Assembly (NCBI RefSeq): GCF_018350175.1
Contig: NC_058377.1
Location: 100,750,001-100,814,000, forward strand
DNA length: 64,000 nt
Reading direction: 5' to 3'
Source: Felis catus
Lineage: Eukaryota
Part shown: one piece after another, positions 5,700 through 37,300 of the stretch
Layout: each line of letters opens with the position of its first letter
How positions within the stretch are numbered: the first letter of the stretch is position 1
The notes under the pieces: model-generated
Databases searched by the model: none
Seen by the model: the letters and a program-made list of their open reading frames with translations, nothing else
What the model was told of the DNA's origin: nothing
Program-made: the position numbers and the translations under genes

Positions 5700-6248
5700 A
5701 AATATATTTGAAACATGTGAAGTACTTTAAACACTATATTGGGTAGTAGAGTAGCCCCAGTGGTAAAACAGTATGTTTTGGAGGGTATCACTGAAAAGCT
5801 GCGTTTGAACAAAAACTTAAGGGAAAGCATTTCAGTGTGCAGGAAACAGGAGAAAAGACCATAAAGAAAGAGTCGGTAATATTTTTTGGAAAACATAAAG
5901 CAAAACACAAAAACAAAGAGGTCAGACTAGATTGAAGAAGCAGAGGTGGTTAGGAGTAATAGAATAGGACAAGGTTTCAAAGGGACTATTTTCCCAACTC
6001 GATATTTAACTTTTTAAATATTTCTGCTTTAACTCTCAGTGAATCATGATGACCTAAAGGAAGGATATTCACCCTTCTCCAACAGGGTCAGAGTGGATGG
6101 CAGGGAGGAAGACACTTATGCCTGCTATATGGTAGCCACTCAATATTTGATAAGGATGGTTTTTATAATTCCATAACTTTTATAATGGTTGTAGGTATAT
6201 ATGGGACTAATCAGGGGTTGGAGAAGTGATTTTAAAATATAACATTTT

Positions 6249-6455
6249 GGGGGCACCTGGATGGCTCAGTTGGCTAAGTGTCTGACTCTTGGTTTTGGCT
6301 CAGGTCATGATCTCATGGTTCATGAGTTCAAGCCCCACACTGGGCTCTGTGCTGACAGTGTGGAGCCTGCTTGGTATTCTCTCTCTCTCCCTGTCTCTCT
6401 GCCCCTCCCACACACTCTCTCTCTCCTTTTCTTCCAGACTAAATTAATAAAATCT
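6249..6455 (+). mobile_element. CAN-SINE shared with 42340
   Basis: Near-identical copy at 42340-42548 with the same flanks. Confidence 0.88.
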
Positions 6456-6489
6456 AAAATACATTTATATAATTTTTTGTATAAAATTT

Positions 6490-6630
6490 TCCTAATGCTG
6501 CTCCAGGGTTTCAAGCATTACGTCAGAGAAAAATGATTAATTTTAATTGTTTATTTCATGACCTCAAGAGAATGGGGCAAGACATAATCTCTAGGGCTCA
6601 TGTCCCAAAGGTTGTACTATAGATATAAGA
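6490..6630 (+). promoter_or_regulatory. Candidate OR5D18 promoter (homeodomain plus O/E-like sites)
   Basis: TAATGC and TAATTG followed by ctccaggg, cctcaagag, tctctaggg, tcccaaagg and a TATA-like tatagatataa; donor-like gtaagt near 6957; conserved at ~42580-42720. Confidence 0.45.
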
Positions 6631-8543
6631 ATATATCCATCAGTCCCAACCAAGAGTGGCCTTACCTTTGCCATTAGCAGGTTTGTTTTCAGATTCTAGA
6701 GACCGATTGATATTAATTTCAATGTAGGGATCTGGGAAGCAGCACGGTGGGGGAAACTTACCCTTAGATCTGGACAGTTCTTGAGAATTATTTAGTCACT
6801 GCAGAAGTAACATATCTGGAACATGCAAGGAAAAGAAAGTGCATTTATGCTACACGGTTTTGTCTTAGAAGGCCTGGCTCAGATAAACAAGGGCTACCCT
6901 GGGTGGGAGGATAGAAGAGGTTCGAGAACTTCAGGAATGTGCATTGTTCTGTTTCTGTAAGTTATGGAAGAAATAGTCAAGGTAAGATAGAGAAGATTTA
7001 AGTAAAATGAAACTAGCAGATATTGAATACACTCTCTAGTGAAAAAAATTAAAAGGGACCAGCTTTAATTAAGACGATAAAGCAGAAAAAAATAGAGAAA
7101 AATTAGAACAAAATAGGGAAAACAAAGGTAAGAAAATTTCAGCTGTTATATTTCTTGGACTCAATGGTAGAGAAAGATTTTACCAACAATTTAATAATAG
7201 TATTTGGGATGCAAGAATCATCATGTTGAATATCACATTCATTTAAAATAAAACCTGAAAAGCCTTAGTAAGTTAAATATTATATTAAGCAAGAAGTGTG
7301 ATAATGAGAACATCTAGCTTCATGATGGATGTCTTTTGAGGTTGTCTTTAATACTCAGATGTATGACTATAGGGACAGAGAGGTCCTTTAAGCTCTCAGT
7401 CTTGAATATGATCTGATATCTTTATTGATGGGCCATCTGAAACTATTTCTTGGGTTGTGGGACCAAAGATAACCTTACCATTGAGAGGATTAAGAGTTTT
7501 CTGCTGTGGTAAGATCTTAGAGGTGTTGGGCACCAACTGGAGAAGTACAATGATACTTTTGTATTACTATTTTCTTCTAAAATGCCTTCATAGTGTATTA
7601 CTACCTCGAGTGTTTAAAAAATCCTTCTCCTTCACAGATACTATATGGACAGAATGAATATCCTGCATGTCTTGAAGGGAAAGGAGAGGTGAGAAAAGAG
7701 AGAGAAAGAGAGAGATTCCTAGGCAAGGAAAGTTTCTAAGTCACTTATTACTACTTTAGTTATTTCTGAGAGAGGAAATTTCCCTAATTCTTGTTCTTAT
7801 TTCATCATGATGCTGATTTCTAGTGCAGCTCTTTGGTCTGTACATTGTCAGTAGACTATTTCCCATAGGCCCAGAGACTCTGGCTTGTCACAAATTACAA
7901 GTATGATCATCAATAAAAGAAATATCTTGGTATCTAGACCTGGAACAGGGGTCAGAGTCTGGTGTGGAGGAATGGACATATGGTTGGGATTCTTATCAAG
8001 GCTCTAGTGGCAGGTATGTAGATTGGTCATTATTGGCATGTCATTGGGAAAGTCAAGGTGTCTCCAGAAGTTTTGTCACCTCTAGAACAAGGAAGTAGAC
8101 ATGATTATCTTTAGCATCTAATCTAATTATTTATCAAGTAATGAGGTCACATTGACAATTTGGAGCCCATTAGTTGAGGAGAATACTCTGAAAAAATGAA
8201 TTAAGGTTTATTTTGATATCAGATTCACTGAGTCAGAAAGAAAAAGATTAATGTGTTGTATGAAATGAATAATAAAGGCAAAAATATAAAATGTTAAAGG
8301 TGTTTATGCTTAATGTCACAGTGTAAACCTCTGATGTAAAAATTAATTTGGAAATTTCTCATGTTTGTACTGCTTATAGGGCTGACATAATCAGTCATTA
8401 TATTATATTAGGTGTGTCTTTTATGCACTTATAATGTGCAAGGAAGGCTGAAAGGGTTATGCTAATATTTGATTTAAAATAACCATAAATCCCTTTATCT
8501 CATACTTTTATATGTAAATATTAAAAATTACAGTTAAGAATTT

Positions 8544-9146: not shown

Positions 9147-10082
9147 ATGTTACTGTCAGAGAGAAATAAAACTGGGGCTGTGTTCACTCTCTTGGGCTTC
9201 TCAGATTACCCAGAACTGCAAGTCCCTCTCTTCTTGATTTTTTTGGCCATCTACAGTGTCACTGTTGTAGGAAATATTGGGATGATAGTTATAATCAAGA
9301 TTAACTCCAAACTGCACACCCCCATGTACTTTTTCCTCAGCCACCTCTCATTTGTGGATTTCTGCTATTCCTCCATCATTGTTCCCAAGACCCTGGCAAA
9401 CCTAGTTGTAGAAGACAGGACCATTTCATTTCCAGGATGTATAGTACAATATTTTTTCTTTTGTACCTTTGTGGTAGCTGAATCCTTTTTATTGGCTGTG
9501 ATGGCCTATGACCGCTTTGTGGCCATCTGCAAACCTCTGCTCTACACAGTGGCCATGTCCCAGAAATTCTGTGCCATGCTGGTGGTTGGATCATACGCAT
9601 GGGGAGTAGCATGTTCCCTGATACTCATATGTTCTGCTATCAGGTTATCTTTCCAGGGTTTCAACACAATCAATCACTTCTTCTGTGAGTTCTCTGCATT
9701 GCTGTCCCTGTCTTGCTCTGATATTTACATCAATCAGTTGCTGCTTTTCATTTTTGCCACCTTCAACGTGGTCAGCACACTGCTTATCATTCTCATGTCT
9801 TATGTATTTATCATTGTCACCATCCTCAAGATGCGTTCAGCCAGTGGTCGTCGCAAAGCCTTCTCCACCTGTGCCTCCCACCTGACAGCCATCACCATCT
9901 TCTATGGGACCATTGTCTTCCTCTACTGTGTTCCTAACTCCAAAAACTCGAGGAACACAGTGAAAGTGGCGTCTGTGTTTTACACAGTGGTGATCCCTAT
10001 GCTGAATCCCTTGATCTACAGTCTGAGAAATAAAGACATCAAGGATACAGTCAGCAAGATAACTGAAGCCTTTTCTTTTTGA
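9147..10082 (+). CDS. OR5D18: Olfactory receptor, OR5D18-like (copy 1), 311 aa
   Basis: Intact ORF with OR motifs [48 protein letters not shown]-terminus [10 protein letters not shown] and CVPNSKNSR match human OR5D18 as I recall it. Splice acceptor tttttattttcag ends at 9113. Confidence 0.93.
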
Positions 10083-11637: not shown

Positions 11638-12624
11638 ACTGCTCAAAACCAATTGCTTCCATAACTATTCAAAAATAAAATAAAGTCAGATAGTGTATAG
11701 GAAGATGGCGGCGTAGGAGGACGCTGGGCTCACCGCACGTCCTGCTGATCACTTAGATTCCACCTACACCTGCCTAAATAACCCAGAAAACTGCCAGAGG
11801 ATTAGCAGAACAGAGTCGCCGGAGCCAAGCGCAGACGAGAGGCCCACGGAAGAGGGTAGGAAGGGCGGCGAGGCGGTGCGCACTCCACGGACTGGCGGGA
11901 GGGAGCCGGGGCAGAGGGGCGGCTCGCCGGCCAAGCAGAGCCCCCGAGTCTGGCTTGCAAAAGCGGAGGGGCCTGACAGACTGTGTTCCCACAGCAAACG
12001 CGACTTAGCGTCTGGGAGGACATAAGTTAGCAGCTCTGCTCGGAAAGCGGGAAGGCTGGAGGAAAAGGCAGGGAGAGCTGCTGAGGTCCCTGACGACAGA
12101 GGTCAGTTTGGTGGGGAACAAAGGCGCTCGCCAGTGCCATCTCCCTCGCCCATCCCCCAGCCAAAATCCCAAAGAGAACCAGTTCCTGCCAGGGAACTTG
12201 CTGGCTCCGTGCAAACACCCAACTCTGTGCTTCTGTGGAGCCAAACCTCCGGCAGCGGCAGCGGATCTGACTCCCTCCTGCTGCCACAGGGCCCCTCCTG
12301 AAGTGGATCACCTAAGGATAAGCGAGCTGAGCCTGCCCCTCCCACCCCTGTGCACCTTGCCTACCCACCCCAGCTAATACGCCAGATCCCCAGCACCACA
12401 ACCCTGGCAGTGTGCAAGTAGCCCAGACAGGCCACGCCACCCCACAGTGAATCCCGCCCCTAGGAGAGGGGAAGAGAAGGCACACACCAGTCTGATTGTG
12501 GCCCCAGCGGTGGGCTGGGGGCAGACATCAGGTCTGACTGTGGCCCCGCCCACCAACTCCAGTTATACACCACAGCACAGGGGAAGTGCCCTGCAGGTCC
12601 TCACCACGCCAGGGACTATCCAAA

Positions 12625-13520
12625 ATGACCAAGCGGAAGAATTCCCCTCAGAAGAATCTCCAGGAAATAACAACAGCTAATGAGCTGATCAAAAAGGATT
12701 TAAATAATATAACAGAAAGTGAATTTAGAATAATAGTCATAAAATTAATCACTGGGCTTGAAAACAGTATAGAGTACAGCAGAGAATCTCTTGCTACAGA
12801 GATCAAGGGACTAAGGAACAGTCACGAGGAGCTGAAAAACACTTTAAATGAAATGCAAAACAAAATTGAAACCACAACGGCTCGGATTGAAGAGGCAGAG
12901 GACAGAATAGGTGAACTAGAAGATAAAGTTATGGAAAAAGAAGAAGCTGAGAAAAAGAGAGATAAAAAAAAAATCCAGGAGTATGAGGGGAAAATTAGAG
13001 AACTAAGTGATACACTAAAAAGAAATAATATACGCATAATTGGTATCCCAGAGGAGGAAGAGAGAGGGAAAGGTGCTGAAGGGGTACTTGAAGAAATAAA
13101 GCTGAGAACTTCCCTGAACTGGGGAAGGAAAAAGGGATTGAAATCCAAGAGGCACAGAGAACTCCCTTCAGACGTAACTTGAATCGATCTTCTGCACGAC
13201 ATATCATAGTGAAACTGGCAAAATACAAGGATAAAGAGAAAATTCTGAAAGCAGCAAGGGGTAAACGTGCCCTCACATATAAAGGGAGACCTATAAGACT
13301 CGTGACTGATCTCTCTTTTGAAACTTGGCAGGCCAGAAAGAATTGGCACGAGATTTTCAGGGTGCTAGATAGAAAAAATATGCAGCCGAGAATCCTTTAT
13401 CCAGCAAGTCTGTCATTTAGAATAGAAGGAGAGATAAAGGTCTTCCCAAACAAACAAAAACTGAAGGAATTTGTCACCACTAAACCAGCCCTACAAGAGA
13501 TCCTAAGGGGGACCCTGTGA
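12625..13520 (+). pseudogene. L1 ORF1p, frameshifted near 13099
   Basis: MTKRKNSPQ... coiled coil, then RNNIRIIGIPE; continues in another frame (ORF 13179-13520, ILYPASLSF, KPALQEIL). Confidence 0.9.
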
Positions 13521-13570
13521 GACAAAGTCCCAGAGACATCACTACAAGCATAAAACATACAGACATCACA

Positions 13571-16500
13571 ATGACTCTAAACCCGTATCTTTCTATAATA
13601 ACACTGAATGTAAATGGATTAAATGCGCCAACCAAAAGACATAGGGTATCAGAATGGATAAAAAAAAACAAGACCCATCTATTTGCTGTCTACAAGAGAC
13701 TCATTTTAGTCCTGAGGACACCTTTAGATTGAGAGTGAGGGGATGGAAAACTATTTATCATGCTACTGGAAGCCAAAAGAAAGCTGGAGTAGCCATACTT
13801 ATATCAGACAAACTAGACTTTAAATTAAAGGCTGTAACAAGAGATGAAGAAGGACATTATATAATAGTTACAGGGTCTATCCATCAGGAAGAGCTAACAA
13901 TTATAAATGTCTATGCGCTGAATACTGGAGCCCCCAAATATATAAAACAATTACTCATAAACATAAGCAACCTTATTGATAAGAATGTGGTAATTGCAGG
14001 GGACTTTAACACCCCACTTACAGAAATGGATAGATCATCTAGACACACGGTCAATAAAGAAACAAGGGCCCTGAATGAGACATTGGATCAGATGGACTTG
14101 ACAGATATATTTAGAACTCTGCATCCCAAAGCAACAGAATATACTTTCTTCTTGAGTGCACATGGAACATTCTCCAAGATAGATCATATACTGGGTCACA
14201 AAACAGCCCTTCAGAAGTTTACAAGAATTGAAATTATACCGTGCATACTTTCAGACCACAATGTTATGAAGCTTGAAATCAACCACAGAAAAAAGTCTGG
14301 AAAACCTCCAAAAGCCTGGAGGTTAAAGAACACCCTACTAACGAATGAGTGGGTCAACCAGGCAATTAGAGAAGAAATTAAAAAATATATGGAAACAAAC
14401 GAAAATGAAAATACAACAATCCAAACGCTGTGGGTCGCAGCGAAGGCAGTCCTGAGAGGAAAATACATTGCAATCCAGGCCTATCTCAAGAAACAAGAAA
14501 AATCCCAAATACAAAATCTAACAGCACACCTAAAGGAACTAGAAGCAGAACAGCAAAGGCAGCCTAAACCCATCAGAAGAAGAGAAATAATAAAGATCAG
14601 AGCAGAAATAAACAATATAGAATCTAAAAAAACTGTAGAGCAGATCAACGAAACCAAGAGTTGGTTTTTTGAAAAAATAAACAAAATTGACAAACCTCTA
14701 GCCAGGCTTCTCAAAAAGAAAAGGGAGATGACCCAAATAGATAAAATCATGAATGAAAATGGAATTATTACAACCAATCCCTCAGAGATACAAACAATTA
14801 TCAGGGAATACTATGAAAAATTATATGCCAACAAATTGGACAACCTGGAAGAAATGGACAAATTCCTGAACACCCACACTCTTCCAAAACTCAATCAGGA
14901 GGAAATAGAAAGCTTGAACAGACCCATAACCAGCAAAGAAATTGAATCGGTTATCAAAAATCTCCCAACAAATAAGAGTCCAGGACCAGATGGCTTCCCA
15001 GGGGAGTTCTACCAGACGTTTAAAGCAGAGATAATACCTATCCTTCTCAAGCTATTCCAAGAAATAAAAAGGGAAGGAAAACTTCCAGACTCATTCTATG
15101 AAGCCAGTATTACTTTGATTCCTAAACCAGACAGAGACCCAGTCAAAAAAGAGAACTACAGGCCAATATCCCTGATGAATATGGATGCAAAAATTCTCAA
15201 TAAGATACTAGCAAATCGAATTCAACGGCATATAAAAAGAATTATTCACCATGATCAAGTGGGATTCATTCCTGGGATGCAGGGCTGGTTCAACATTCTC
15301 AAATCAATCAACGTGATACATCACATTAACAAAAAAAAAGAGAAGAACCATATGATCCGGTCAATCGATGCAGAAAAAGCCTTTGACAAAATCCAGCCCT
15401 CTTTCTTAATAAAAACCCTTGAGAAAGTCGGGATAGAAGGAACATACTTAAAGATCATAAAAGCCATTTATGAAAAGCCCACAGCTAACATCATCCTCAA
15501 CGGGGAAAAACTGAGAGCTTTCTCCCTGAGATCAGGAACACGACAGGGATGCCCACTCTCACCGCTACTGTTTAATATAGTGTTGGAAGTTCTAGCATCA
15601 GCAATCAGACAACAAAAGGAAATCAAAGGCATCAAAATTGGCAAAGATGAAGTCAAGCTTTCGCTTTTTGCAGATGACATGATATTATACATGGAAAATC
15701 CGATAGACTCCACCGAAAGTCTGCTAGAACTGATACATGAATTCAGCAAAGTTGCAGGATACAAAATCAATGTACAGAAATCAGTTGCATTCTTATACAC
15801 TAACAATGAAGCAACAGAAAGACAAATAAAGAAACTGATCCCATTCACAATTGCACCAAGAAGCATAAAATACCTAGGAATAAATCTAACCAAAGATGTA
15901 AAGGATCTGTATGCTGAAAACTACAGAAAGCTTATGAAGGAAATTGAAGAAGATTTAAAGAAATGGAAAGACATTCCCTGCTCATGGATTGGAAAAATAA
16001 ATATTGTCAAAATGTCAATACTACCCAAAGCTATCTACACATTCAATGCAATCCCAATCAAAATTGCACCAGCATTCTTCTCGAAACTAGAACAAGCAAT
16101 CCTAAAATTCATATGGAACCACAAAAGGCCCCGAATAGCCAAAGGAATTTTGAAGAAGAAGACCAAAGCAGGAGGCATCACAATCCCAGACGTTAGCCTC
16201 TACTACAAAGCTGTCATCATCAAGACAGCATGGTATTGGCACAGAAACAGACACATAGACCAATGGAATAGAATAGAAACCCCAGAACTAGACCCACAAA
16301 CGTATGGCCAACTCATCTTTGACAAAGCAGGAAAGAACATCCAATGGAAAAAAGACAGCCTCTTTAACAAATGGTGCTGGGAGAAGTGGACAGCAACATG
16401 CAGAAGGTTGAAACTAGACCATTTTATCACACCATTCACAAAAATAAACTCAAAATGGATAAAGGACCTAAATGTGAGACAGGAAACCATCAAAACCTTA

Positions 16501-17397
16501 GAGGAGAAAGCAGGAAAAGACCTCTCTGACCTCAGCCGTAGCAATCTCTTACTCGACACATCCCCAAAGGCAAGGGAATTAAAAGCAAAAGTGAATTGCT
16601 GGGACCTTATGAAGATAAAAAGCTTCTGTACAGCAAAGGAAACAACCAACAAAACTAAAAGGCAACCAACGGAATGGGAAAAGATATTCACAAATGACAT
16701 ATCGGACAAAGGGCTAGTCTCCAAAATCTATAAAGAGCTCACCAAACTCCACACCCGAAAAACAAATAACCCAGTGAAGAAATGGGCAGGAAACATGAAT
16801 AGACACTTCTCCAAAGAAGACATCCGGATGGCCAACAGGCACATGAAAAGATGTTCAGCGTCGCTCCTTATCAGGGACATACAAATCAAAACCACACTCA
16901 GGTATCACCTCACGCCAGTCAGAGTGGCCAAAATGAACAAATCAGGAGACTCTAGATGCTGGAGAGGATGTGGAGAAACGGGAACCCTCTTGCACTGTTG
17001 GTGGGAATGCAAATTGGTGCAGCCGCTCTGGAAAGCAGTGTGGAGGTTCCTCAGAAAATTAAAAATAGACCTACCCTATGACCCAGCAATAGCACTGCTA
17101 GGAATTTATCCAAGGGATACAGGAGTACTGATGCATAGGGCCACTTGTACCCCAATGTTCATAGCAGCACTCTCAACAATAGCCAAATTATGGAAAGAGC
17201 CTAAATGTCCATCAACTGATGAATGGATAAAGAAATTGTGGTTTATATACACAATGGAATACTACGTGGCAATGAGAAAAAATGAAATATGGCCTTTTGT
17301 ACCAACGTGGATGGAACTGGAGAGTGTGATGCTAAGTGAAATAAGCCATACAGAGAAAGACAGATACCATATGTTTTCACTCTTATGTGGATCCTGA
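13571..17397 (+). CDS. L1 ORF2p (APE endonuclease, reverse transcriptase, C-terminal Cys domain) with a +2 frameshift in the A-run at ~13660-13668
   Basis: [18 protein letters not shown] start; 1247 uninterrupted codons 13654-17397 containing GDFN, SDH, QGCPLSP, FADD and CWRGC..HCWWEC. Confidence 0.9.
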
Positions 17398-22349: not shown

Positions 22350-23285
22350 ATGGGCAAGGGAAACTGCTCCGGTGTGACCGAGTTCATTCTCCTCGGATTC
22401 GCAGAAGCCCCTGAGTTGAGAGTTGCCCTCTTCTCTGTGTTCTTTCTCATCTATGGAGTCACGGTGCTGGGCAACCTGGGCATGATGGCAGTGATTCAGG
22501 TCAGCTGTCACCTTCACACTCCCATGTACTTTTTCCTCAGCCACTTATCCTTTGTGGATTTTTGCTACTCCACCGTCATCGTGCCAAAGATGCTAACTAA
22601 TATCTTAAACGAGGACAAAACCATTTCCTTCCTGGGGTGCAGCGTGCAATTCTACTTGTTTTGTACATGTGTGGTAAGTGAGGTCTTCCTGTTGGCGGTC
22701 ATGGCCTATGACCGCTTCGTGGCCATCTGGAACCCACTGTTGTACACGGTCACCATGTCCCGGAATCTCTGTGTGGAGGTGGTGTCTTGTTGCTACCTGT
22801 GTGGGATGGTGTGTTCTCTGATCCACTTGTGTTTAGCTCTTGAGATCACATCCTACAGATCAAATGTGATTGACCACTTCTTCTGCGATCTGCCTCCTCT
22901 CTTGTCCCTTGCTTGCTCTGATGTGACTATGAATGAACTGCTGCTGTACATCGTGGCCACCTTCAATGAGATCACCACCATTGTGATCATCCTCACCTCC
23001 TACTTGCTAATTCTCATCACCATCCTGAGGATGCACTCTGCCGAGGGAAGGCGCAAAGCCTTTTCCACCTGTGCCTCCCACCTCACAGCCATCCTTGTCT
23101 TCCACGGAACAATCCTTTTCACTTACTGCCGGCCCAGTTCTGGCAACAGTATGGATACTGACAAGGTGGCCACGGTGTTCTACACTGTAGTGATTCCCAT
23201 GCTCAACCCCCTCATCTATAGCCTCCGGAACAAGGATGTGAAGGAAGCGCTCAGAAAAATGGTGAGCTCCAAAATATTTTCCTAG
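22350..23285 (+). CDS. Olfactory receptor, OR5L1/OR5L2-like (G2), 311 aa
   Basis: ORF 22251-23285; likely start is accATGG at 22350 (MGKGNCS with N-glycosylation sequon). OR5L-type CRPSSGNS and [10 protein letters not shown]; all OR motifs present except AIC>AIW. Confidence 0.93.
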
Positions 23286-23814
23286 AAAATATTTTCTTTG
23301 CGAGACTCAAGTTCCCACAGGGCAGGCTGGTTGAGCGGTGAATGGGTGGTTGTAGTGTTTGAGTGGAGGGTAGAGCCAGGGGGTAGGTAGTTAAGAGCGA
23401 TTCTTTTTGATTCACTTACCTTTATGAATCTTCCATTTGCCTCAAAGTTAGGACTGAGTATATTTCAAATTTTAAGCCTACTTCTTTTCTTTTCTTCAAT
23501 CTATAATCTTTGAAATGGATAGGAGTAATGGATTCCTAAGACATGTTTGGTTTGCTCTATAACCTTCATAAGCTTAATGAAGAACTCTTGAGAATCATGC
23601 TCTCTTTCAGTATCTATGATGGAAAATTCATTCCTTTTCAAAATTGAATTCCTGCCATTTTACAATGAAGAACACATCTTTGTCCAACAGTTGATACATA
23701 GAGTGCGATTTCCACATGCACACATGTCATTTTTATCTTTTTATTCTTTTTGATACATTTATTGCTTATTTTTTGTTTTCCTTATTATTTGTCTCAGTGT
23801 ACAGTGTTTTTGGA

Positions 23815-23937
23815 ACTTCAGATAGTATCTCATCTGAAAAAGTGGAGTTAATCTTAATTACTTCACATGGATGTTAGTAAAATTAAATTGCATGTCATGT
23901 GCAAAGAGCCTAGAATAATCCCTGGCACATAAATAGT
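23815..23937 (+). mobile_element. MIR relic (copy at +8713)
   Basis: ctcatctgaaaaagtgg..atgtgcaaagagcctagaa..cctggcacata. Confidence 0.6.
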
Positions 23938-24005
23938 TTTCTGTTTCTCTCTCTTCCTTCCCTTATATTGTCCTAATATTACATATATACTTTTGGTCAC
24001 ATGTG

Positions 24006-24039
<34 letters not shown>

Positions 24040-24224
24040 GATTTGCCATCATTGAATAACCCTTACTACAAGTAGCTGCATTTCTGACTTAGGTCACTTG
24101 TCACATTTTTGTTGTTTGTTTCCTCAATTTTTGTCTCCATTATAACTCTCCATTTGGATCAAACGCTGTCACTTAAAATTGGAATTCTAAGCTATTTGTA
24201 GAAAACATAAATATTTCATTTTCA

Positions 24225-24990
24225 AGCCAAAATATGGAAAGACCCTAAATGTCAACCAACTGATGAATGCACAAAGAAGATGTGATATATCTATATCTAT
24301 ATCTATATCTGTATCTATATCTATATCTATATCTATCATCTATATCTAGAGAGAGAGAGGAATATTACTGAGCCACCAAAAAGAGTGAAATCTTGCTATT
24401 TGCAACAACCTGGATGGAATTAGAGATGATTATGCTGAGTGAAATAAGTCAGTCAAAGGCAAATACCATATTATTTTCTCTCATATGTGGAATTTTTTTT
24501 TAATTTTTTTTTCAACGTTTATTTATTTTTGGGACAGAGAGAGACAGCGCATGAACAGGGGAGGGGCAGAGAGAGAGGGAGACACAGAATCTGAAACAGG
24601 CTCCAGGCTCTGAGCCATCAGCCCAGAGCCTGACGCGGGGCTCAAACTCCCAGACCGCGAGATCATGACCTGGCTAAAGTTCGACGCCCAACCGACTGTG
24701 CCACCCAGGCGCCCCTCATATGTGGAATTTAAGAAACAAAGCAGATGAATATAGTGGGGAAAAAAGAGAGCTAAACCATAGAATAGTCTCTTAACTAGGG
24801 AAGAAACTGAATGTTGCCAGATGGGAGGTGGGTGGGGGAATGGATTAAACGTGTGATGGATACTAAGGAGGGCAGTTGTGATGAGCACTGGGTGTTGGAT
24901 GTAAGTGATAAATCACTGAAATCTACATCTGGAATTGATATTACACTGTATGTTAACTAAATGGAATTTAAATAAAAACCTGAAAAAAAA
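24225..24990 (+). mobile_element. Carnivore L1 3' fragment inserted in the OR pseudogene
   Basis: ORF2 end, 3'UTR and A tail; TSD tcattttca at 24216-24224 and 24991-24999; internal (TATATC)n at ~24285-24347. Confidence 0.85.
24496..24715 (-). mobile_element. SINEC_Fc nested in the L1 fragment
   Basis: TSD tcatatgtggaattt. Confidence 0.9.
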
Positions 24991-27029
24991 TCATTTTCAG
25001 GGTGCATACTGGACTTTATGTTACATCCCTGTGGTTCCTGAATTAATTCTGCTATGACAGTGTGTGACAGCTTCGTGGCCATTTGCAACACTTTGCATTA
25101 CACAGGTGCTGTGCCCCAGAAACCCCGTGCCCTACTACAGGTTGTATCAAATGCATGGGGAGTAGCATGTTTCCTGAAACTCACATGTTCTGCTTTCGAG
25201 GTATCTTTTAGTGCTTCATCACAGTCACTTCTGTGAGTTCTCCTCACTAATGTCTCTTTCTTGTTCTGAGTCTTATGTCAGCCAGTTGCTTCTCGCTGCT
25301 TCTCACAATGAGGTGAGCACAGAGCTCTTCTTCCTCCTGTCTTATGAGGTTTTCATTGCCACCTCTCCAGACACATTCATCAGGTGAGCATCAAGAAATC
25401 CTCTTCAACTGTCAGCTTCACACTTGACCGATCACCGTTTTCTACGGCACCATTCTCTTCTCCTAGTCTCTGCCCTACCTCCTAAACCTCCAGGCACACA
25501 AAGTGTTACCTGTTATATACGGTGGTGATCCTCTTGTTGAAGCCCCTTATCTATAGACTGAGATATAAGGACACGAAAGACACAGTCAGACACTTTTTTT
25601 TTCCATAGTGAATGGTAAACACTTACCTCTGTTATTATAGAACATCTTTCTGTGATTTTTGAAGGAGCTGTCAATCAAGCTCATTTTTAAACATCACTTA
25701 GATTGTCCAAAAGACAGAATACTTACAATGGGAAGAATATGAATTTTAGGTCTGAGAAATCATACCTGGCTCTGATAATATAAAATCGGCCAGTTGGTTT
25801 ATCTGAACCAGTCTTTATCTACAAAAATGATATAATGTGATGTAACTCATGGAGTGGAATGTGAAAAAAAATAAAATGTAGACAGCATATCTGGCATTTG
25901 TATATGTGCAATACATGCTAGTTGTATTCTCTTCTCTTCACTGCTAAGCGATAGGTTGCAGGTGTTAAATACACAGCCACTTTTGCAGTTTAAATTCAAT
26001 GAAATTGATGAAAGGAAAGAAATACATAGTCTTCTTTTCAAAAACCTCACAAGCCAGTAGTATTAGTAAATATCATAATGTTTGGTCAGGAGACACGTCA
26101 AAATCATATGTGGATATCAAAGAGATTATTTCATAATTGTGTGCATCCTTTGCTTGAACTTGAAGGATGGGCAGGTTTTGAAAAGACACAGAAGAGAAAG
26201 ACACAAGGTGTATTCAGGAGTAAAGAACAGGAACAACATTTGAGAGGTGAGCATGAATAATAAAGCCAATGATTCAGCAATATTGTGAGCTACTGTTTTG
26301 TGTCATATGCATTCAAGGTATCTTGTTAGGTGCTGGAAGGAATGAGAATTTGCATAAGATACACTTATTATTCTCAATTCCTTCAAAAAGAGTTCCCTTG
26401 TGGAGGGTGCAAATATTACAAGAAGTTTAGAAATACTAGCGTGTTTCCTAGAATAGTGAGAACAAAAACAAACCAAATATATTCACGTTCTATGTTTTAG
26501 GCTCCCTAAACATTTATTTTCCTTAAATGTTGTTTTAAATTGTCATTTGTAAATTATAATCTTAACAAGTAATTAATCAAACTTAGGTTATTGTGTCTAT
26601 TAGGAAAGATTAGCTTCTCTCTGGTAGTAGTAACATTTATTATAAGATGGCCTCATAGATAAAGGTGTCTAATTTTCAAAAATCTTATGACATCATATTT
26701 ATCTTTCTTCTGTCATTAATTTTGCTTGAATTACTTACGTATCCTTTGTTTGGTACTCTTTGTCATTGGTAAATCCCAAATTAGTCCAGAAAATTATTAT
26801 GAGAAAAAATAATAGCTGTGTTGGTTGAGGGTAAAATAAACACTGGATAATAACCATATATTGGTTCATGAAATAATTTGGAATGGTTCTGTGATCTTAA
26901 ACTTACAGTAATTAATTAAAGTCAACTTATTTCAGAAGTAGAACTATATAATTATGACCCAAACTATCTTATATATTTGCATATATTCACGTATATGAAA
27001 CTGCCTTCTTTTACACATTGTCACTTGAT

Positions 27030-28040
27030 TTGAACTTACCTGGAACGCTTGTAGTAAAGTAGCAGAAATGTTATATTGTTCTTGATTGGAGTCAATGATG
27101 AAAATGAAAACTAACCTATGAAATTTAATAGATGCTTCTAAGTGTTTAGAGGGAAATATATGTCTTTGAATAACTGTATTAGAAATGAAGAAAACTCTCA
27201 AAATTAGAATCTTAGCTTCCACATTAAGAATCAAAAAAAAAAAAAAAAGAAAAAAGAAAAGAAAAGAAAAAGAAAAAAAGAACAAGGGAGGTTATAATAA
27301 AGACCAGATTATCAGTCAATAAAGTAGAAAAATTAAAAGTAGAGATCATTGAGTTTGCACTGTGAAAAGATTACTACCATTGACAAAATTTTAGCTAGAA
27401 TTACTAGGAGAAAAGGAAACCAGAAACAAATTAGTACAATTAGTAAGGATAGTAATCTTGCAAAAATTTTATGCCAACAATTTAGTCAACTTAGATGATA
27501 CAGACAGATTTGAAAAAGATAAATTTTCCCAAGATGACAAAGAAGTAGAAAATCTGAATAGATATGTGACAATAAATTCAATTTGTAATGAAAATATTCT
27601 CACACTCCTTCCATCAATATCCAGACAATTACTCTTACTAAATATCTATGTAGGCAATAACACTGGTTGTTACACAGATGGCTTCACCAGTTACTTTTAC
27701 TAAATAACTACATAAGCAATGGTACCATTGTGAGTTACTTTATTTAGGAGACAGAGACCGTGATCCTTTTTCCAATTCATGCAGTTATATCAGTATTACC
27801 CTGATACCAAAGCCAAACAAAGGCAACACACAGAGGAAAACAGAAAGCAAAATCCCTCATGGATACAAACCCAAGAATTCTCAACAAATCCTTGTATCCA
27901 ATAATAAGATAAAATAGATGCACTAAAACATAAAAAGGCTTATGAGCCACACCAAGGGAGATTTATCTCAGAAATGCGAAGTTGGTTTAACATATGAAAA
28001 ACAATGTAATATATCACTTACATAGAATGATGGAGATGGG
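27030..28040 (+). mobile_element. Ancient L1M ORF2 fragment (copy ~35743-36750)
   Basis: Decayed KFYANNLVNLDD, EVENLNR and SITLIPKP motifs. Confidence 0.7.
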
Positions 28041-31000
28041 GAACCGGATGGAATGTCTCCTCAGCCTTGGGTGCCATCTTTGGCACATCAATTTTGTAAA
28101 ATATAATCATATTATATGGTAGTTGAGAGAATACCAATGTATTTCCTTGAAACTACATTTTACCACATATACCTTTACAAATTTATGTGCACAGCCAGTG
28201 ATACACAGAGACGAATGGAAAACTGTGGCCTAGATTGATCTTTTAAAGTCAGAAGAACACATCTGGGAAAGATATCTGAGGGGTCCCATTTGATGACTTC
28301 CACCATTGCACATGCATTGGAAAAAAAAATGCAGTCTCAGAAATCTCTCTGGATTTATTTTTTTTTCCATACATTCATATGGGTGGAAAACCAGATGGAC
28401 CTCAATTTCTTTTATTGATCATTTATTTTGAATGTGTCCAAGTTTCAACCGCCTGTAAGATAAGCATAAAAACTGGAATTGCTCTCCTGGCTGGTTACTA
28501 GGAAGCTAAAGTAAGTGAATATTTGTATAATAGTTAGAATGGGTTCCAACACATAGCAAGTGTGAGTTATTATATGGTTTTCTGACCACTGGAGTCATTA
28601 TTTTTTTGACTTTTTTGTTATTTAAAGGAATTCTGATGCAGCTGTAGTCCCCGTGCCCTACAGGAATCTAGGGGATGTTGTAATGTTATAAGAAAGGAAG
28701 AACTTCTAAGAGATATGCATGGCATGTCATTATGGCAATATGAGCTGTGTCCCACACATACGACACTTAATGTGACCTCTATCACGTAGCACCACAAATT
28801 CTGGGAGGAAGCATATGTGGTTTTAAACCATTGTTTCCCAATTTGGGATAATTTAAAAAATAAATTTCCTGATGATATTCCATAGAGATGAACTATTAGT
28901 TGTGTTATATCATACATCACCTTGGTTTAATTTTTATATATTTTGTTATACCATAGAGATTAGTAATTGTTTTGGAGCTTAATGGGCCCATTCCCCAGGA
29001 GCTTAAATTACAGTACAAGTAAGTGTCTGCCTGCTATATACATCTTATATCTTCAGCACCAGGGACAAAACTAGGTCACTCAGGTTTGTTAGCAAGAACT
29101 AGGTTTTGGTTACTTGAAAATAGAAATGAATATATTTTGTCCATAAACAATTATTTTAAAGATATATTGAACTCAACTCTCTTCTAATTAGAGAATGTTT
29201 TAACAGGACCCATATTTCTGTGCAGTTACTGTTTAGAGTGCTTTTGTGTTTTGGTATTCAGAAACAATTAATGGTGAATTTGGAACCGTTTTCTCTGTAA
29301 CATAAAACATGGATGTGTGTAAAAGAATGCTAAATAAACAAATGGTATCTCTCTCTCTCTCTCTCGCTCTCTCTCTCATCTCTTACCACCCATTTTTCAG
29401 ACCGATCTCTATCACAGCATCTAACATGTATGACCATTGAGAGCGTCCTTAGTTTTCATATTAATGCTGAGGTTTGCATTTCTGTTCCTGCCAGATGGTT
29501 ATCGAGAGTCAGGACTTATGAACTCTCTGTGGTTAGAAAAAGAGATGAATTCTTTTGGATTTGTTTTGGGTTTGTTATGAAATGGTTTCTTATTATCAGC
29601 CTAGGAGATTATGAAGCAAAACATTTGCCAGGTTGAATATCCTCTTTGAGAAGTAGGCAAGTAGGTCAGGTATTTTGCTTTGTTTTGTTTTTGTTCTTGG
29701 TCAGGTAATGGAAAACTGTGACTTAAGGGAAGTGATATGTTTCCATGTCTTTAAGGTTCGCTCAAGAGACCGAGAAGATACCAAGATATGCTTCCATTCC
29801 AGAACCTCTTCACTCAATTTTCATTACGCATAAGTGGAGAAGTCATGATTCTAGTCCTTGTGCTGTCTAGAAGTGGGAGCAGAGAATAGAATCCCTCAAT
29901 TTTTATTTGCCTTTTCCTTTAAGAAGGGCCTCAGTGGTAGATCTCCCTTATATAGAGCATACAATGTAATCATTTTTGCAACCAACTACTTAAACAATCT
30001 CTATCATGTGTATTCATATCTCTATGGGTGCATCTTCATTTGCGTCTATATGTATATGCTGAGTGTACTATTCAGTATCCTTTTTATTTAAAAAAAACAC
30101 CTCATAAAAGGGATTTTACATAGTATGATAATTTTCTGTCCTAGATATGACGCCCCAAAGTTTAACACTTGCTCCACTTCTGAAAATATTTTTTATGGTA
30201 AATATTATAAACAGTAATGCAATACAGTTTTGGACATGATTTTTCACAACTTTATCAATGTAACTAAATATCTTTTAATAGCTTATGAGGAATAAAATCT
30301 ATCAAAAAAATATCAGATAGCTTTTATTGTTGTCAGGGTCAAGACTTGGATATATACCCCTTCATTACTTTCCAGAAAAAGGTATTCAAGAGATCTATCT
30401 CTCTGAATCTTTATTAGCATAGATTGTTATTATCATAATTAATTAAGCTAGTAAATCAATTAACCACATAGTGGATTTGATAGGCACAATTCTCACTTTC
30501 AATGTATATTTTAAATCTCTTGTTTCATAATTCAGATTTTAACGAGTTTTTGTGAGCTACAAACATCAAAATTTCTATCACACTTTTCCATAATAGAATA
30601 TGAGAAAACTTTGTTTCAAATTTATGTTCCTGATAGAGTCACGTAAAAATAAAAAAACAAAAAAGTATTTGGAGCATCAGAGTAGGTGTTACTCTCCTGA
30701 ACAGAGCTTATTAAGTTTCTTCAGAGAACAGATGCTAGTGTCTGTATGGCTTTGAAATATATCATTGAATCTATCTTAAATTCCACCCAGAAACTGAACT
30801 TAATCATAGATAAAGTGATAGATAAGGGTTGGAATCATTCAAGCTTTCTACTGATGCCTAAGTCAGTTTTGGTCAGTGGGATCCACTGAGTCTTTAACCT
30901 TTTGAATTACTTGACCACTGTGCTTCTGTTGTATCTTATACATACATTGTTTGATATCAATGTTATATTCTACTGAAATTAATGTTAGCCTGTTTTTTCC

Positions 31001-31062
31001 TCCCTTTTTAGAAGAAAGACAATATTTATCATTTGTTTCCCTAAGTCTGACACCTGGCAGGA

Positions 31063-31998
31063 ATGGGCACGGGAAACTGCTCCAGTGTGACCGAGTTCAT
31101 TCTCCTCGGATTCGCAGAAGCCCCCGAGTTGAGAGTCGCCCTCTTCTCTGTGTTCCTCCTCATCTATGGAGTCACGGTGCTGGGCAACCTGGGGATGATG
31201 GCAGTGATTCAGGTCAGCTGTCACCTTCACACTCCCATGTACTTTTTCCTCAGCCACTTATCCTTTGTGGATTCTTGCTACTCCACCGTCATCGTGCCAA
31301 AGATGCTAACTAATATCTTAAACGAGGACAAAACCATTTCCTTCCTGGGGTGCTGCGTGCAATTCTACTTGTTTTGTACATGTGTGGTAAGTGAGGTCTT
31401 CCTGTTGGCGGTCATGGCCTATGACCGCTTCGTGGCCATCTGGAACCCACTGTTGTACACGGTCACCATGTCCCGGAATCTCTGTGTGGAGCTGGTGTCT
31501 TGTTGCTACCTGTGTGGGATGGTGTGTTCTCTGATCCACTTGTGTTTAGCTCTTGAGATCACATCCTACAGATCAAATGTGATTGACCACTTCTTCTGCG
31601 ATCTGCCCCCTCTCTTGTCCCTTGCTTGCTCTGATGTCACTATGAATGAACTCATGGTATTCATTGTGGCCACCTTCAATGAGATCACCACCATCGTGAT
31701 CATCCTCACCTCCTACTTGCTAATTCTCATCACCATCCTGAGGATGCACTCTGCCGAGGGAAGGCGCAAAGCCTTTTCCACCTGTGCCTCCCACCTCACA
31801 GCCATCCTTGTCTTCCACGGAACAATCCTTTTCACTTACTGCCGGCCCAGTTCTGGCAACAGTATGGATACTGACAAGGTGGCCACGGTGTTCTACACTG
31901 CAGTGATTCCCATGCTCAACCCCCTCATCTATAGCCTCCGGAACAAGGATGTGAAGGAAGCGCTCAGAAAAATGGTGAGCTCCAAAATATTTTCCTAG
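31063..31998 (+). CDS. Olfactory receptor, OR5L-like (G3), 311 aa, hybrid gene
   Basis: Intact ORF; acceptor ctggcag 2 nt before the ATG; 5' flank shared with G4, 3' flank shared with G2. Confidence 0.93.
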
Positions 31999-32718
31999 AA
32001 AATATTTTCTTTGCGAGACTCAAGTTCCCACAGGGCAGGCTGGTTGAGCGGTGAATGGGTGGTTGTAGTGTTTGAGTGGAGGGTAGAGCCAGGGGGTAGG
32101 TAGTTAAGAGCGATTCTTTTTGATTCACTTACCTTTATGAATCTTCCATTTGCCTCAAAGTTAGGACTGAGTATATTTCAAATTTTAAGCCTACTTCTTT
32201 TCTTTTCTTCAATCTATAATCTTTGAAATGGATAGGAGTAATGGATTCCTAAGACATGTTTGGTTTGCTCTATAACCTTCATAAGCTTAATGAAGAACTC
32301 TTGAGAATCATGCTCTCTTTCAGTATCTACGATGGAAAATTCATTCCTTTTCAAAATTGAATTCCTGCCATTTTACAATGAAGAACACATCTTTGTCCAA
32401 CAGTTGATACATAGAGTGCGATTTCCACATGCACACATGTCATTTTTATCTTTTTATTCTTTTTGATACATTTATTGCTTATTTTTTGTTTTCCTTATTA
32501 TTTGTCTCAGTGTACAGTGTTTTTGGAACTTCAGATAGTATCTCATCTGAAAAAGTGGAGTTAATCTTAATTACTTCACATGGATGTTAGTAAAATTAAA
32601 TTGCATGTCATGTGCAAAGAGCCTAGAATAATCCCTGGCACATAAATAGTTTTCTGTTTCTCTCTCTTCCTTCCCTTATATTGTCCTAATATTACATATA
32701 TACTTTTGGTCACATGTG

Positions 32719-32752
<34 letters not shown>

Positions 32753-32902
32753 GATTTGCCATCATTGAATAACCCTTACTACAAGTAGCTGCATTTCTGA
32801 CTTAGGTCACTTGTCACATTTTTGTTGTTTGTTTCCTCAATTTTTGTCTCCATTATAACTCTCCATTTGGATCAAACGCTGTCACTTAAAATTGGAATTC
32901 TA

Positions 32903-34303
32903 AGCTATTTGTAGAAAACATAAATATTTCATTTTCAAGCCAAAATATGGAAAGACCCTAAATGTCAACCAACTGATGAATGCACAAAGAAGATGTGATA
33001 TATCTATATCTATATCTATATCTGTATCTATATCTATATCTATATCTATCATCTATATCTAGAGAGAGAGAGGAATATTACTGAGCCACCAAAAAGAGTG
33101 AAATCTTGCTATTTGCAACAACCTGGATGGAATTAGAGATGATTATGCTGAGTGAAATAAGTCAGTCAAAGGCAAATACCATATTATTTTCTCTCATATG
33201 TGGAATTTTTTTTTAATTTTTTTTTCAACGTTTATTTATTTTTGGGACAGAGAGAGACAGCGCATGAACAGGGGAGGGGCAGAGAGAGAGGGAGACACAG
33301 AATCTGAAACAGGCTCCAGGCTCTGAGCCATCAGCCCAGAGCCTGACGCGGGGCTCAAACTCCCAGACCGCGAGATCATGACCTGGCTAAAGTTCGACGC
33401 CCAACCGACTGTGCCACCCAGGCGCCCCTCATATGTGGAATTTAAGAAACAAAGCAGATGAATATAGTGGGGAAAAAAGAGAGCTAAACCATAGAATAGT
33501 CTCTTAACTAGGGAAGAAACTGAATGTTGCCAGATGGGAGGTGGGTGGGGGAATGGATTAAACGTGTGATGGATACTAAGGAGGGCAGTTGTGATGAGCA
33601 CTGGGTGTTGGATGTAAGTGATAAATCACTGAAATCTACATCTGGAATTGATATTACACTGTATGTTAACTAAATGGAATTTAAATAAAAACCTGAAAAA
33701 AAATCATTTTCAGGGTGCATACTGGACTTTATGTTACATCCCTGTGGTTCCTGAATTAATTCTGCTATGACAGTGTGTGACAGCTTCGTGGCCATTTGCA
33801 ACACTTTGCATTACACAGGTGCTGTGCCCCAGAAACCCCGTGCCCTACTACAGGTTGTATCAAATGCATGGGGAGTAGCATGTTTCCTGAAACTCACATG
33901 TTCTGCTTTTGAGGTATCTTTTAGTGCTTCATCACAGTCACTTCTGTGAGTTCTCCTCACTAATGTCTCTTTCTTGTTCTGAGTCTTATGTCAGCCAGTT
34001 GCTTCTCGCTGCTTCTCACAATGAGGTGAGCACAGAGCTCTTCTTCCTCCTGTCTTATGAGGTTTTCATTGCCACCTCTCCAGACACATTCATCAGGTGA
34101 GCATCAAGAAATCCTCTTCAACTGTCAGCTTCACACTTGACCGATCACCGTTTTCTACGGCACCATTCTCTTCTCCTAGTCTCTGCCCTACCTCCTAAAC
34201 CTCCAGGCACACAAAGTGTTACCTGTTATATACGGTGGTGATCCTCTTGTTGAAGCCCCTTATCTATAGACTGAGATATAAGGACACGAAAGACACAGTC
34301 AGA
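32903..34303 (+). pseudogene. Duplicate of the OR5D16-like pseudogene
   Basis: Offset +8713 from the first copy and near-identical (ORF 33767 equals ORF 25054). Confidence 0.8.
32938..33703 (+). mobile_element. Duplicate L1 3' fragment with nested SINE (33209-33428, minus strand)
   Basis: Matches 24225-24990 at offset +8713. Confidence 0.85.
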
Positions 34304-37300
34304 CACTTTTTTTTTCCATAGTGAATGGTAAACACTTACCTCTGTTATTATAGAACATCTTTCTGTGATTTTTGAAGGAGCTGTCAATCAAGCTCATTTT
34401 TAAACATCACTTAGATTGTCCAAAAGACAGAATACTTACAATGGGAAGAATATGAATTTTAGGTCTGAGAAATCATACCTGGCTCTGATAATATAAAATC
34501 GGCCAGTTGGTTTATCTGAACCAGTCTTTATCTACAAAAATGATATAATGTGATGTAACTCATGGAGTGGAATGTGAAAAAAAATAAAATGTAGACAGCA
34601 TATCTGGCATTTGTATATGTGCAATACATGCTAGTTGTATTCTCTTCTCTTCACTGCTAAGCGATAGGTTGCAGGTGTTAAATACACAGCCACTTTTGCA
34701 GTTTAAATTCAATGAAATTGATGAAAGGAAAGAAATACATAGTCTTCTTTTCAAAAACCTCACAAGCCAGTAGTATTAGTAAATATCATAATGTTTGGTC
34801 AGGAGACACGTCAAAATCATATGTGGATATCAAAGAGATTATTTCATAATTGTGTGCATCCTTTGCTTGAACTTGAAGGATGGGCAGGTTTTGAAAAGAC
34901 ACAGAAGAGAAAGACACAAGGTGTATTCAGGAGTAAAGAACAGGAACAACATTTGAGAGGTGAGCATGAATAATAAAGCCAATGATTCAGCAATATTGTG
35001 AGCTACTGTTTTGTGTCATATGCATTCAAGGTATCTTGTTAGGTGCTGGAAGGAATGAGAATTTGCATAAGATACACTTATTATTCTCAATTCCTTCAAA
35101 AAGAGTTCCCTTGTGGAGGGTGCAAATATTACAAGAAGTTTAGAAATACTAGCGTGTTTCCTAGAATAGTGAGAACAAAAACAAACCAAATATATTCACG
35201 TTCTATGTTTTAGGCTCCCTAAACATTTATTTTCCTTAAATGTTGTTTTAAATTGTCATTTGTAAATTATAATCTTAACAAGTAATTAATCAAACTTAGG
35301 TTATTGTGTCTATTAGGAAAGATTAGCTTCTCTCTGGTAGTAGTAACATTTATTATAAGATGGCCTCATAGATAAAGGTGTCTAATTTTCAAAAATCTTA
35401 TGACATCATATTTATCTTTCTTCTGTCATTAATTTTGCTTGAATTACTTACGTATCCTTTGTTTGGTACTCTTTGTCACTGGTAAATCCCAAATTAGTCC
35501 AGAAAATTATTATGAGAAAAAATAATAGCTGTGTTGGTTGAGGGTAAAATAAACACTGGATAATAACCATATATTGGTTCATGAAATAATTTGGAATGGT
35601 TCTGTGATCTTAAACTTACAGTAATTAATTAAAGTCAACTTATTTCAGAAGTAGAACTATATAATTATGACCCAAACTATCTTATATATTTGCATATATT
35701 CACGTATATGAAACTGCCTTCTTTTACACATTGTCACTTGATTTGAACTTACCTGGAACGCTTGTAGTAAAGTAGCAGAAATGTTATATTGTTCTTGATT
35801 GGAGTCAATGATGAAAATGAAAACTAACCTATGAAATTTAATAGATGCTTCTAAGTGTTTAGAGGGAAATATATGTCTTTAAATAACTGTATTAGAAATG
35901 AAGAAAACTCTCAAAATTAGAATCTTAGCTTCCACATTAAGAATCAAAAAAAAAAAAAAAAGAAAAAAGAAAAGAAAAGAAAAAGAAAAAAAGAACAAGG
36001 GAGGTTATAATAAAGACCAGATTATCAGTCAATAAAGTAGAAAAATTAAAAGTAGAGATCATTGAGTTTGCACTGTGAAAAGATTACTACCATTGACAAA
36101 ATTTTAGCTAGAATTACTAGGAGAAAAGGAAACCAGAAACAAATTAGTACAATTAGTAAGGATAGTAATCTTGCAAAAATTTTATGCCAACAATTTAGTC
36201 AACTTAGATGATACAGACAGATTTGAAAAAGATAAATTTTCCCAAGATGACAAAGAAGTAGAAAATCTGAATAGATATGTGACAGTAAATTCAATTTGTA
36301 ATGAAAATATTCTCACACTCCTTCCATCAATATCCAGACAATTACTCTTACTAAATATCTATGTAGGCAATAACACTGGTTGTTACACAGATGGCTTCAC
36401 CAGTTACTTTTACTAAATAACTACATAAGCAATGGTACCAATTGTGAGTTACTCTATTTAGGAGATAGAGACTGTGATCCTTTTTCCAATTCATGCAGTT
36501 ATATCAGTATTACCCTGATACCAAAGCCAAACAAAGGCAACACACAGAGGAAAACAGAAACCAAAATCCCTCATGGATACAAACCCAAGAATTCTCAACA
36601 AATCCTTGTATCCAATAATAAGATAAAATAGATGCACTAAAACAAATAAAAGGCTTATGAGCCACACCAAGGGAGATTTATCTCAGAAATGCGAAGTTGG
36701 TTTAACATATGAAAAACAATGTAATATATCATTTACATAGAATGATGGAGATGGGGAACCAGATGGAATGTCTCCTCAGCCTTGGGTGCCGTCTTTGGCA
36801 CATCAATTTTGTAAAATATAATCATATTATATGGTAGTTGAGAGAATACCAATGTATTTCCTTGAAACTACATTTTACCACATATACCTTTACAAATTTA
36901 TGTGCACAGCCAGTGATACACAGAGACGAATGGAAAACTGTGGCCTAGATTGATCTTTTAAAGTCAGAAGAACACATCTGGGAAAGATATCTGAGGGGTC
37001 CCATTTGATGACTTCCACCATTGCACATGCATTAGAAAAAAAAAATGCAGTCTCAGAAATCTCTCTGGATTTATTTATTTTTTCCATACATTCATATGGG
37101 TGGAAAACCAGATGGGCCTCAATTTCTTTTATTGATCATTTATTTTGAATGTGTCCAAGTTTCAACCGCTTGTAAGATAAGCATAAAAACTGGAATTGCT
37201 CTCCTGGCTGGTTACTAGGAAGCTAAAGTAAGTGAATATTTGTATAATAGTTAGAATGGGTTCCAACACATAACAATTGTGAGTATTATACGGTTTTCTG

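Follow-up and report, generated by a model that had tools for sequence, protein, structure and literature searches.

Persistence of two TM3 pocket motifs in tandem OR5L odorant receptor genes of the cat and other carnivores under likely gene conversion

Introduction

Tandem odorant receptor (OR) genes in the genome of Felis catus include paralogs that are almost identical over much of their coding sequences (CDS) and strongly different over a short segment around TM3. This locus raises the question of what is preserved in such a cluster, at which scale, and by which process. In an initial annotation, the segment was described as a 114-nt cassette spanning TM2, ECL1, and TM3 of OR5L genes, spared by gene conversion at each gene and kept distinct by selection, as in tandem opsin genes. 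Here, the locus was compared with OR5L genes of other mammals.

Materials and Methods

The analyzed DNA, herein referred to as the window, is a stretch of 64,000 nt (NCBI RefSeq assembly GCF_018350175.1, contig NC_058377.1, positions 100,750,001 to 100,814,000, forward strand). Relatives were collected by two protein searches aimed at the two cassettes and by two cluster look-ups, giving 321 proteins among the matches listed. Searches aimed at the cassettes favor the finding of a TM3 dimorphism over others; the TM5 sites were not favored. From 295 named proteins and four window proteins, 18 fragments or fusions and 8 duplicates were dropped, leaving 273 sequences in the alignment. Types were defined by residues 107 and 108: type X has C107 with V, L, or I at 108, and type Y has Y or F at 107 with A or G at 108. 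Differences at 107 and 108 are fixed by this definition, and 109 is free of it. Among the matches listed, 117 of the 273 sequences belong to type X, 129 to type Y, and 27 are intermediate.

The scaffold tree had 90 rows, drawn from 31 selected species plus a marsupial, and was built with residues 98–110 left out. Felid proteins were assigned to loci from their ends, using the N-terminus, the tail, and marks at codons 175–176 or 293. Carnivore DNA was taken from Table S4 of PMC13696124, in a portion covering under half of its genes and the first 400 nt per gene. A search of this portion with a term upstream of the motif gave 15 OR5L rows among at least 22 matches. Badger and coyote rows were identified by the headers of the table, and the remaining ones by their similarity to named proteins. 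A rough neutral model was run on a carnivore time tree with assumed dates.

Results

Organization of the Locus

Six intact OR genes, all on the forward strand, are present in the window (Table 1). Two of them, G1 and G5, are presumably OR5D-like. The other four are intact single-exon OR frames of 311–316 aa that contain the MAYDRF motif. Their nearest named relatives are OR5L1/5L2-like, and the best PDB match is the consensus OR5 (9WPM), consistent with family 5. By sequence, G2, G3, G4, and G6 are predicted to be class II odorant receptors of the OR5L subfamily. No further close OR5L copy was found in the genome search, the next matches being partial and 64–81% identical.

Table 1. Coordinates of genes, motifs, and exchanged or duplicated segments in the window
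Feature	Position	Strand	Description
G1	9147–10082 (start 9147)	+	OR5D-like
G2	22350–23285	+	Intact OR5L-like gene, 311 aa, ATG 22350; TM3 motif X (CVV), TM5 LLY, short tail
Tandem duplication, 8.7-kb period	22350–40742	+	22350–32022 vs. 31063–40742, 98.2%; OR5D-like pseudogene in each unit
X cassette of G2, felid-wide	22587–22700	+	Codons 80–117; left half is a shoulder, eroded in other lineages
Core X motif of G2	22665–22676	+	Codons 106–109 (TCVV); 108 is 3x36, 109 is 3x37
G3	31063–31998	+	Intact, X motif; 5' flank and N-terminus G4-like, 3' end G2-like
Core X motif of G3	31378–31389	+	
Second island, TM5 of G3	31651–31665	+	Codons 197–201, MVF replacing LLY; 6 differences, 3 silent; 199 is 5x39
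G4	39783–40733	+	Intact, 316 aa, ATG 39783; TM3 motif Y (YAI), long tail
Core Y motif of G4	40098–40109	+	Codons 106–109 (AYAI)
G5	44822–45763 (start 44822)	+	OR5D-like
G6	51011–51961	+	Intact, Y motif; upstream flank G2-like, downstream flank G4-like
143-nt tract in G6	51236–51378	+	Identical to G4 40008–40150; covers the whole cassette

The upstream flank of G3 differs from that of G4 at 19 of 499 nt, and its downstream flank is identical to that of G2 over 200 nt. Such a gene is the expected product of unequal crossing-over of G2 with G4, and G3 is likely a chimera of the two. The upstream flank of G6 differs from that of G2 at 46 of 487 nt and its downstream flank from that of G4 at 34 of 181 nt; with flanks 9–19% diverged from those of G2 and G4, G6 represents an old locus. 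Inside the CDS, G6 is exactly equal to G4 over nt 226–368, the whole cassette included, and 7 differences follow in the next 56 nt. The Y cassette was thus apparently moved whole, and recently, from G4 to G6 by conversion.

Several other features were observed in the window. The spacer at 23286–27200 and the matching part of 31999–39782 are separated by only 3–4 substitutions in the first 3.9 kb, vs. the 19 of 499 nt just upstream of G3 and G4. Either a long stretch was exchanged recently or the assembly has collapsed here. Each 8.7-kb unit contains one frameshifted OR5D-like pseudogene fragment (24991–25587 and 33704–34300) adjoining a SINE. A long L1 with an open ORF2 frame of 1,250 aa and ORF1 in two frames lies between G1 and G2 (12538–17397) and is not present in the paralogous block. 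Codon 127 (22728–22730 in G2) encodes Trp in G2, G3, and G6 vs. Cys in G4, Cys being the usual residue after DRF. Among 37 other felid rows, Trp127 occurs in one tiger entry only; it may be a harmful change, perhaps spread by conversion.

Divergence between G2 and G4

G2 and G4 are separated by 26 differences in the 114 nt of codons 80–117 and by 4 in the 369 nt of codons 145–267, a recount that reproduces the numbers of the initial annotation. Its distribution of the cassettes was also borne out: X is found in G2 and, with 1 difference, in G3 (31300–31413), whereas Y is found in G4 (40020–40133) and, with 0 differences, in G6 (51248–51361). The best 114-nt window contains 26 of the 46 differences between G2 and G4, which was equalled in none of 20,000 permutations. 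That synonymous changes take part in the peak was confirmed at third positions, where 14 of 24 differences fall within 38 codons (0/20,000 permutations); the strictest count, limited to purely synonymous codons, is borderline (7/16; 1,075/20,000). Silent sites differ at 11 of 26 positions in the cassette vs. 9 of 196 outside, for a window picked after the fact. Nor is dS uniform along the CDS, in keeping with the earlier proposal: it reaches 0.61 in the cassette (95% range about 0.28–1.4) vs. 0.037 in codons 118–300. With dN of 0.19, dN/dS in the cassette is about 0.3, a ratio with low power for three codons, and dN above dS at contact sites, the MHC-like criterion, was not seen across the cassette.

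The claim that conversion acts everywhere except in the cassette held for the homogenized scaffold and failed at three other segments: codons 301–311 differ between G2 and G4 at 13 of 33 nt, codons 118–144 contain 5 differing replacement sites, and G3 alone has the TM5 island. Inside the cassette, codons 80–84 contain 6 differences in 12 nt, forming a dense block similar to the core motif. The OR5D-like genes G1 and G5, a second converting pair, served as a replicate and are homogenized with only a weak rise at codons 81–118 (dS 0.12 vs. 0.02–0.18 elsewhere) and no comparable island. This pair differs by about 3% over most of the CDS; its nearby flanks differ by 14–22%, with a 2–7% patch at 5900–7400.

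Scaffold and Motif in Other Mammals

In codons 145–267, G2 and G4 differ by 1 residue, and either of them differs from any caniform OR5L by at least 8 (mean 13–14). This rules out plain constraint on the segment, and the likeness of G2 and G4 therefore reflects homogenization. For 39 of the 48 species labels with both types, the most similar X and Y proteins of the species resemble each other more than either resembles its own type in another family; this test failed in 9. In the scaffold tree, each of Felidae, Canidae, Mustelidae, Ursidae, Pinnipedia, Pholidota, and Strepsirrhini stays in one group. Types X and Y take 30 changes on this tree, vs. a mean of 30.25 for shuffled labels, and a Y clade was rejected by the AU test (p-AU 5e-37). 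Some recent changes are common to the X and Y genes of a single lineage; examples are V142L, found in Prionailurus, and T167, found in G2, G3, and G4. These comparisons suggest that conversion likely homogenizes OR5L coding sequences within each mammal lineage.

Among felids, X and Y were both recovered from Panthera, Neofelis, Lynx, Prionailurus, and Leopardus. The Y genes of jaguarundi and Geoffroy's cat have a loop that is largely or partly X-like. The X and Y rows of dog and arctic fox show 0 scaffold differences in 273 positions. Fixed X/Y differences are found at codons 107–109 in canids (17 X, 9 Y) and bears (7 X, 13 Y), at 106–108 in mustelids, and at 107–108 in seals and strepsirrhines. 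When 300 sites were compared in 25 groups, the within-species dimorphisms that recurred in most groups were those at 108 (17 groups), 109 (16), and 107 (15), followed by 199 (12), 229 (12), and 198 and 215 (11). Since site 229 (H/R), for which no pocket link was shown, is shared almost as widely, sharing at the protein level is by itself weak support for the motif.

In Carnivora, 109 of 127 rows have exactly CVV or YAI. A second dimorphism, LLY or MVF at codons 198–200 in TM5, assorts independently of the TM3 motif: all four combinations were found in Carnivora, in 36, 30, 30, and 27 rows that are not independent samples. Exact YAI was also found in bats, pangolins, elephant shrew, elephant, anteater, and porcupine; a marsupial sequence has exact CVV. 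Among the matches listed, the aromatic motif is absent from the retrieved anthropoid primates, horses, rhino, and hippo, and elephants have only Y; these taxa are among the 26 of 74 multi-copy species labels in which the X and Y pair is missing.

Silent Bases of the Motifs

In the covered portion of Table S4 (PMC13696124), the third base is C at codons 106 and 109 in 11 of 11 Y rows and A at codon 108 in 9 of 11. In 4 of 4 X rows, the third bases of codons 106, 108, and 109 are A, G, and A, as in the window. Exceptions were recorded at codon 106, which ends in T in a coyote Y sequence, and at codon 109, which ends in G in a panda-like X row. Four tandem copies in the order X-Y-X-Y were found in badger, where a 13-nt segment with 8 differences separates the neighbors OR342 and OR343, flanked by about 183 and 73 identical nt (counted by eye). 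The coyote pair OR237/OR233 shows 6 differences in 10 nt and has canid-specific silent bases in common up to codon 105 (by eye). The motif island in these two species is thus 10–13 nt long, and its silent bases match the felid ones.

Since silent bases are shared across Carnivora, the CVV/YAI pair has a single origin within this order, before the split of cats and dogs. This split dates to about 50–55 My. A placental-stem origin of the pair may be considered on the evidence of proteins.

Position of the Motif in the Binding Pocket

Residues 108 and 109 align without gaps to G108 and N109 of consOR1, and codons 107–109 correspond to positions 3x35–3x37, with 108 at 3x36 and 109 at 3x37. The divergence peak sits on pocket positions 108–109, in line with the proposed link to the TM3 pocket. 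Position 107 (3x35) presumably packs between helices. OR5L position 199 was equated with 5x39 by matching numbering at D180/E180.

In the accessible text of one structural study, N109 (3x37) of consOR1 engages menthol, and 3x37 of consOR51 governs basal activity and chain length, a bulky residue raising basal activity (10.1101/2023.11.16.567230). In the part of the Olfr412 study used here, V108 (3x36) touches the ligand and the size of this residue is proposed to shift the position of the odorant, alanine changes in TM3 lowered signaling only mildly, and the statements on L199 (5x39) disagree, one counting it as a contact and another denying direct binding (PMC13025043). Neither source, in its accessible parts, names position 107 (3x35) as a pocket contact. 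No ligand or functional difference for these receptors was found in the literature listing searched.

Discussion

The reading that we favor, with some confidence, is that two ancient versions of the TM3 motif, CVV and YAI, survive in tandem OR5L genes, selection keeping two tunings of the pocket while conversion homogenizes the CDS lineage by lineage. Conversion tracts would overwrite the neighbors on either side of the motif and would sometimes carry it whole to another copy, and outcomes leaving the cluster with a single motif would be selected against, presumably for ligand specificity. The island would then shrink to the codons of functional weight, and the 114-nt cassette of felids would be its less eroded state, so that the preserved thing would be the motif pair within the cluster, not the cassette at each gene. 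The TM5 dimorphism would behave alike, and its independent assortment would give a two-by-two set of pockets on one scaffold.

Several claims of the initial annotation were carried further by these comparisons. The paralogs are indeed old, their motifs having matching silent bases across Carnivora, and both persist across felids and beyond on scaffolds that group by mammal family, not by cassette type. The selected unit had been drawn too widely: the left half of the TM2-ECL1-TM3 cassette was overwritten in jaguarundi, Geoffroy's cat, and caniforms, the last of which keep only codons 106/107–109 distinct, and the 114-nt unit was rejected. Sparing of the cassette at each gene does not agree with its apparent copying from G4 to G6 within 143 identical nt; free crossing of the cassette by conversion tracts, named earlier as an observation against the claim, was found to the extent of this tract. 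The opsin-like model kept its local peak shared across species and lost the fixation of each variant at its own locus. The TM5 motif had been overlooked.

Under the rough neutral model, both motifs were retained in all seven carnivore groups in 0–6 of 20,000 runs when paralog coalescence was up to 30 My, and in 57–128 of 20,000 runs at 50 My. The scaffold dS of 0.04–0.08 suggests, with assumed mutation rates, roughly 10–30 My. The 26 of 74 labels without the pair and the dN/dS of about 0.3 argue against selection being universal.

A neutral heterology barrier, in which dense mismatches stop branch migration or resist repair so that tracts end at the edges of the island, would let it persist without selection, and we consider this unlikely. 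The 6–8 mismatches in 10–13 nt do form a dense block, the long and short C-terminal tails persist too, and some lineages appear to have lost a motif. However, the barrier is weakened by the fate of the similarly dense block at codons 80–84, which was overwritten in caniforms and largely in jaguarundi. The whole cassette was, moreover, apparently co-converted into G6, and several separate lineages eroded down to the same pocket codons.

Selection may also keep both motifs for basal activity, sensitivity, or trafficking and not for different odorants, a slightly less probable account. It agrees with the effect of a bulky 3x37 residue in consOR51 (10.1101/2023.11.16.567230) and with the absence of 107 from the contacts described in the texts cited above, but in two class II structures, as presented there, the ligand is contacted directly by 108 and 109.

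That each gene holds its own 114-nt cassette shielded from conversion, as in opsin exon 5, is very improbable, although felid X usually goes with a short tail (11 of 20 rows, 3 being unclassed) and Y with a long tail (15 of 17). Motif X is found in G6-like genes of Geoffroy's cat and of two species of Prionailurus, whereas G6 in the window carries Y; the long-tail gene of canids carries X in 5 rows and Y in 3; and in the covered rows of badger the order is X-Y-X-Y. Unless locus assignments from protein ends are wrong, fixed loci are already contradicted. Two observations belong to these same genes. The long-tail OR5L of dog has YAI in some entries and CVV in others (P0015, P0155, P0160, and P0161), and the accession XP_005631779 stands for a YAI protein in version 1 and a CVV protein in version 2; a segregating micro-conversion is possible. 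The felid X proteins P0236, P0239, P0252, and P0255, mostly G6-like, are without a residue near position 176, which suggests a G6-like locus damaged in these felids and intact in the window.

Convergence, with one gene duplicated in each lineage and YAI evolved from CVV independently, has next to no probability: each residue change is one transition and the scaffold tree alone permits it, but felids, canids, bears, mustelids, and seals have matching third bases at silent positions, which one-step routes would not produce. This refutes convergence within Carnivora, and 109 of 127 rows with exactly CVV or YAI also speak against it. Equally far-fetched is a mosaic produced by collapsed or mis-polished repeats, as the near identity of the 8.7-kb units (only 3 substitutions over the first 3.9 kb of spacer) might indicate, since dozens of independent assemblies show identical motifs and mosaics and an artefact could touch the copy number or the G6 tract in the window but not the general pattern.

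Beyond the persistence of the TM3 pair under selection and conversion, a wider and more tentative possibility is that placentals have kept, since their radiation, a two-by-two pocket library (TM3 CVV/YAI, TM5 LLY/MVF), reshuffled by germline micro-conversion, with selection acting on cluster content and modules trimmed to specificity residues.

Comparison with Known Systems

Short conversions shuffle groove motifs in MHC genes. OR5L resembles MHC in that short motifs, predicted here to contact ligands, recombine across loci and species, and differs from it in having two states, not high polymorphism, and in the lack of a replacement excess over the cassette. The closest system in biology is the partitioned conversion of bird gamma-c odorant receptors, described in the accessible part of its report for hundreds of genes with broad diverse regions in TM5–TM6 (bioRxiv 10.1101/2025.11.14.688425). 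Lineage-specific homogenized regions, seen here in the scaffold tree, and more diverse pocket regions are common to both; in contrast, mammals have 2–5 OR5L copies (four close ones here), two discrete motifs dominate, and there is no broad hypervariable pocket. In the same part of that report, human ORs are described as uniform along the gene, and no single motif is traced across families.

Exon 5 of primate red/green opsins, as far as covered in PMC3924837, has a divergence peak under conversion, with sites fixed at their loci for 30–40 My and proven function. OR5L is alike in its tandem paralogs under conversion and in a local peak at functional sites, here predicted, that is shared across species. 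Unlike in opsins, the motif moves between loci, the island measures 10–13 nt in one exon and predates the cat-dog split, and a function is deduced from position. The R/S paralogs of ATP1A1 in Leptodactylus, in the accessible account, concern one genus with 12 scattered paralog-tied substitutions and biochemical proof (bioRxiv 10.1101/2020.08.04.234435). There too, selection, which would act likewise in OR5L, holds few residue differences against conversion across species; OR5L variants, however, are not tied to one locus, as seen in the G6 tract, the felid G6-like genes, and the canid long-tail gene. Mosaic or homogenized mammalian OR paralogs produced by conversion are known (Sharon et al., 1999, cited in PMC1995454), with no long-lived pocket motif described in the part of the latter source used, and the accessible parts of PMC3308321 and PMC4158756 added nothing on the OR5L case. 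No report of a pocket dimorphism in OR5L was found in the largely open-access literature searched. The general pattern has precedents in opsins, in ATP1A1 of frogs, and in the gamma-c receptors of birds; for the OR5L case itself, none was found there.

Natural receptor pairs that differ at just three pocket residues provide a minimal test of tuning by 3x36 and 3x37 in class II receptors. Converting OR clusters can mislead the assignment of orthology and the counts of birth and death in this family. A general scan for narrow islands that outlast conversion in several families is suggested, as such islands may reveal specificity residues of receptors without a known ligand.
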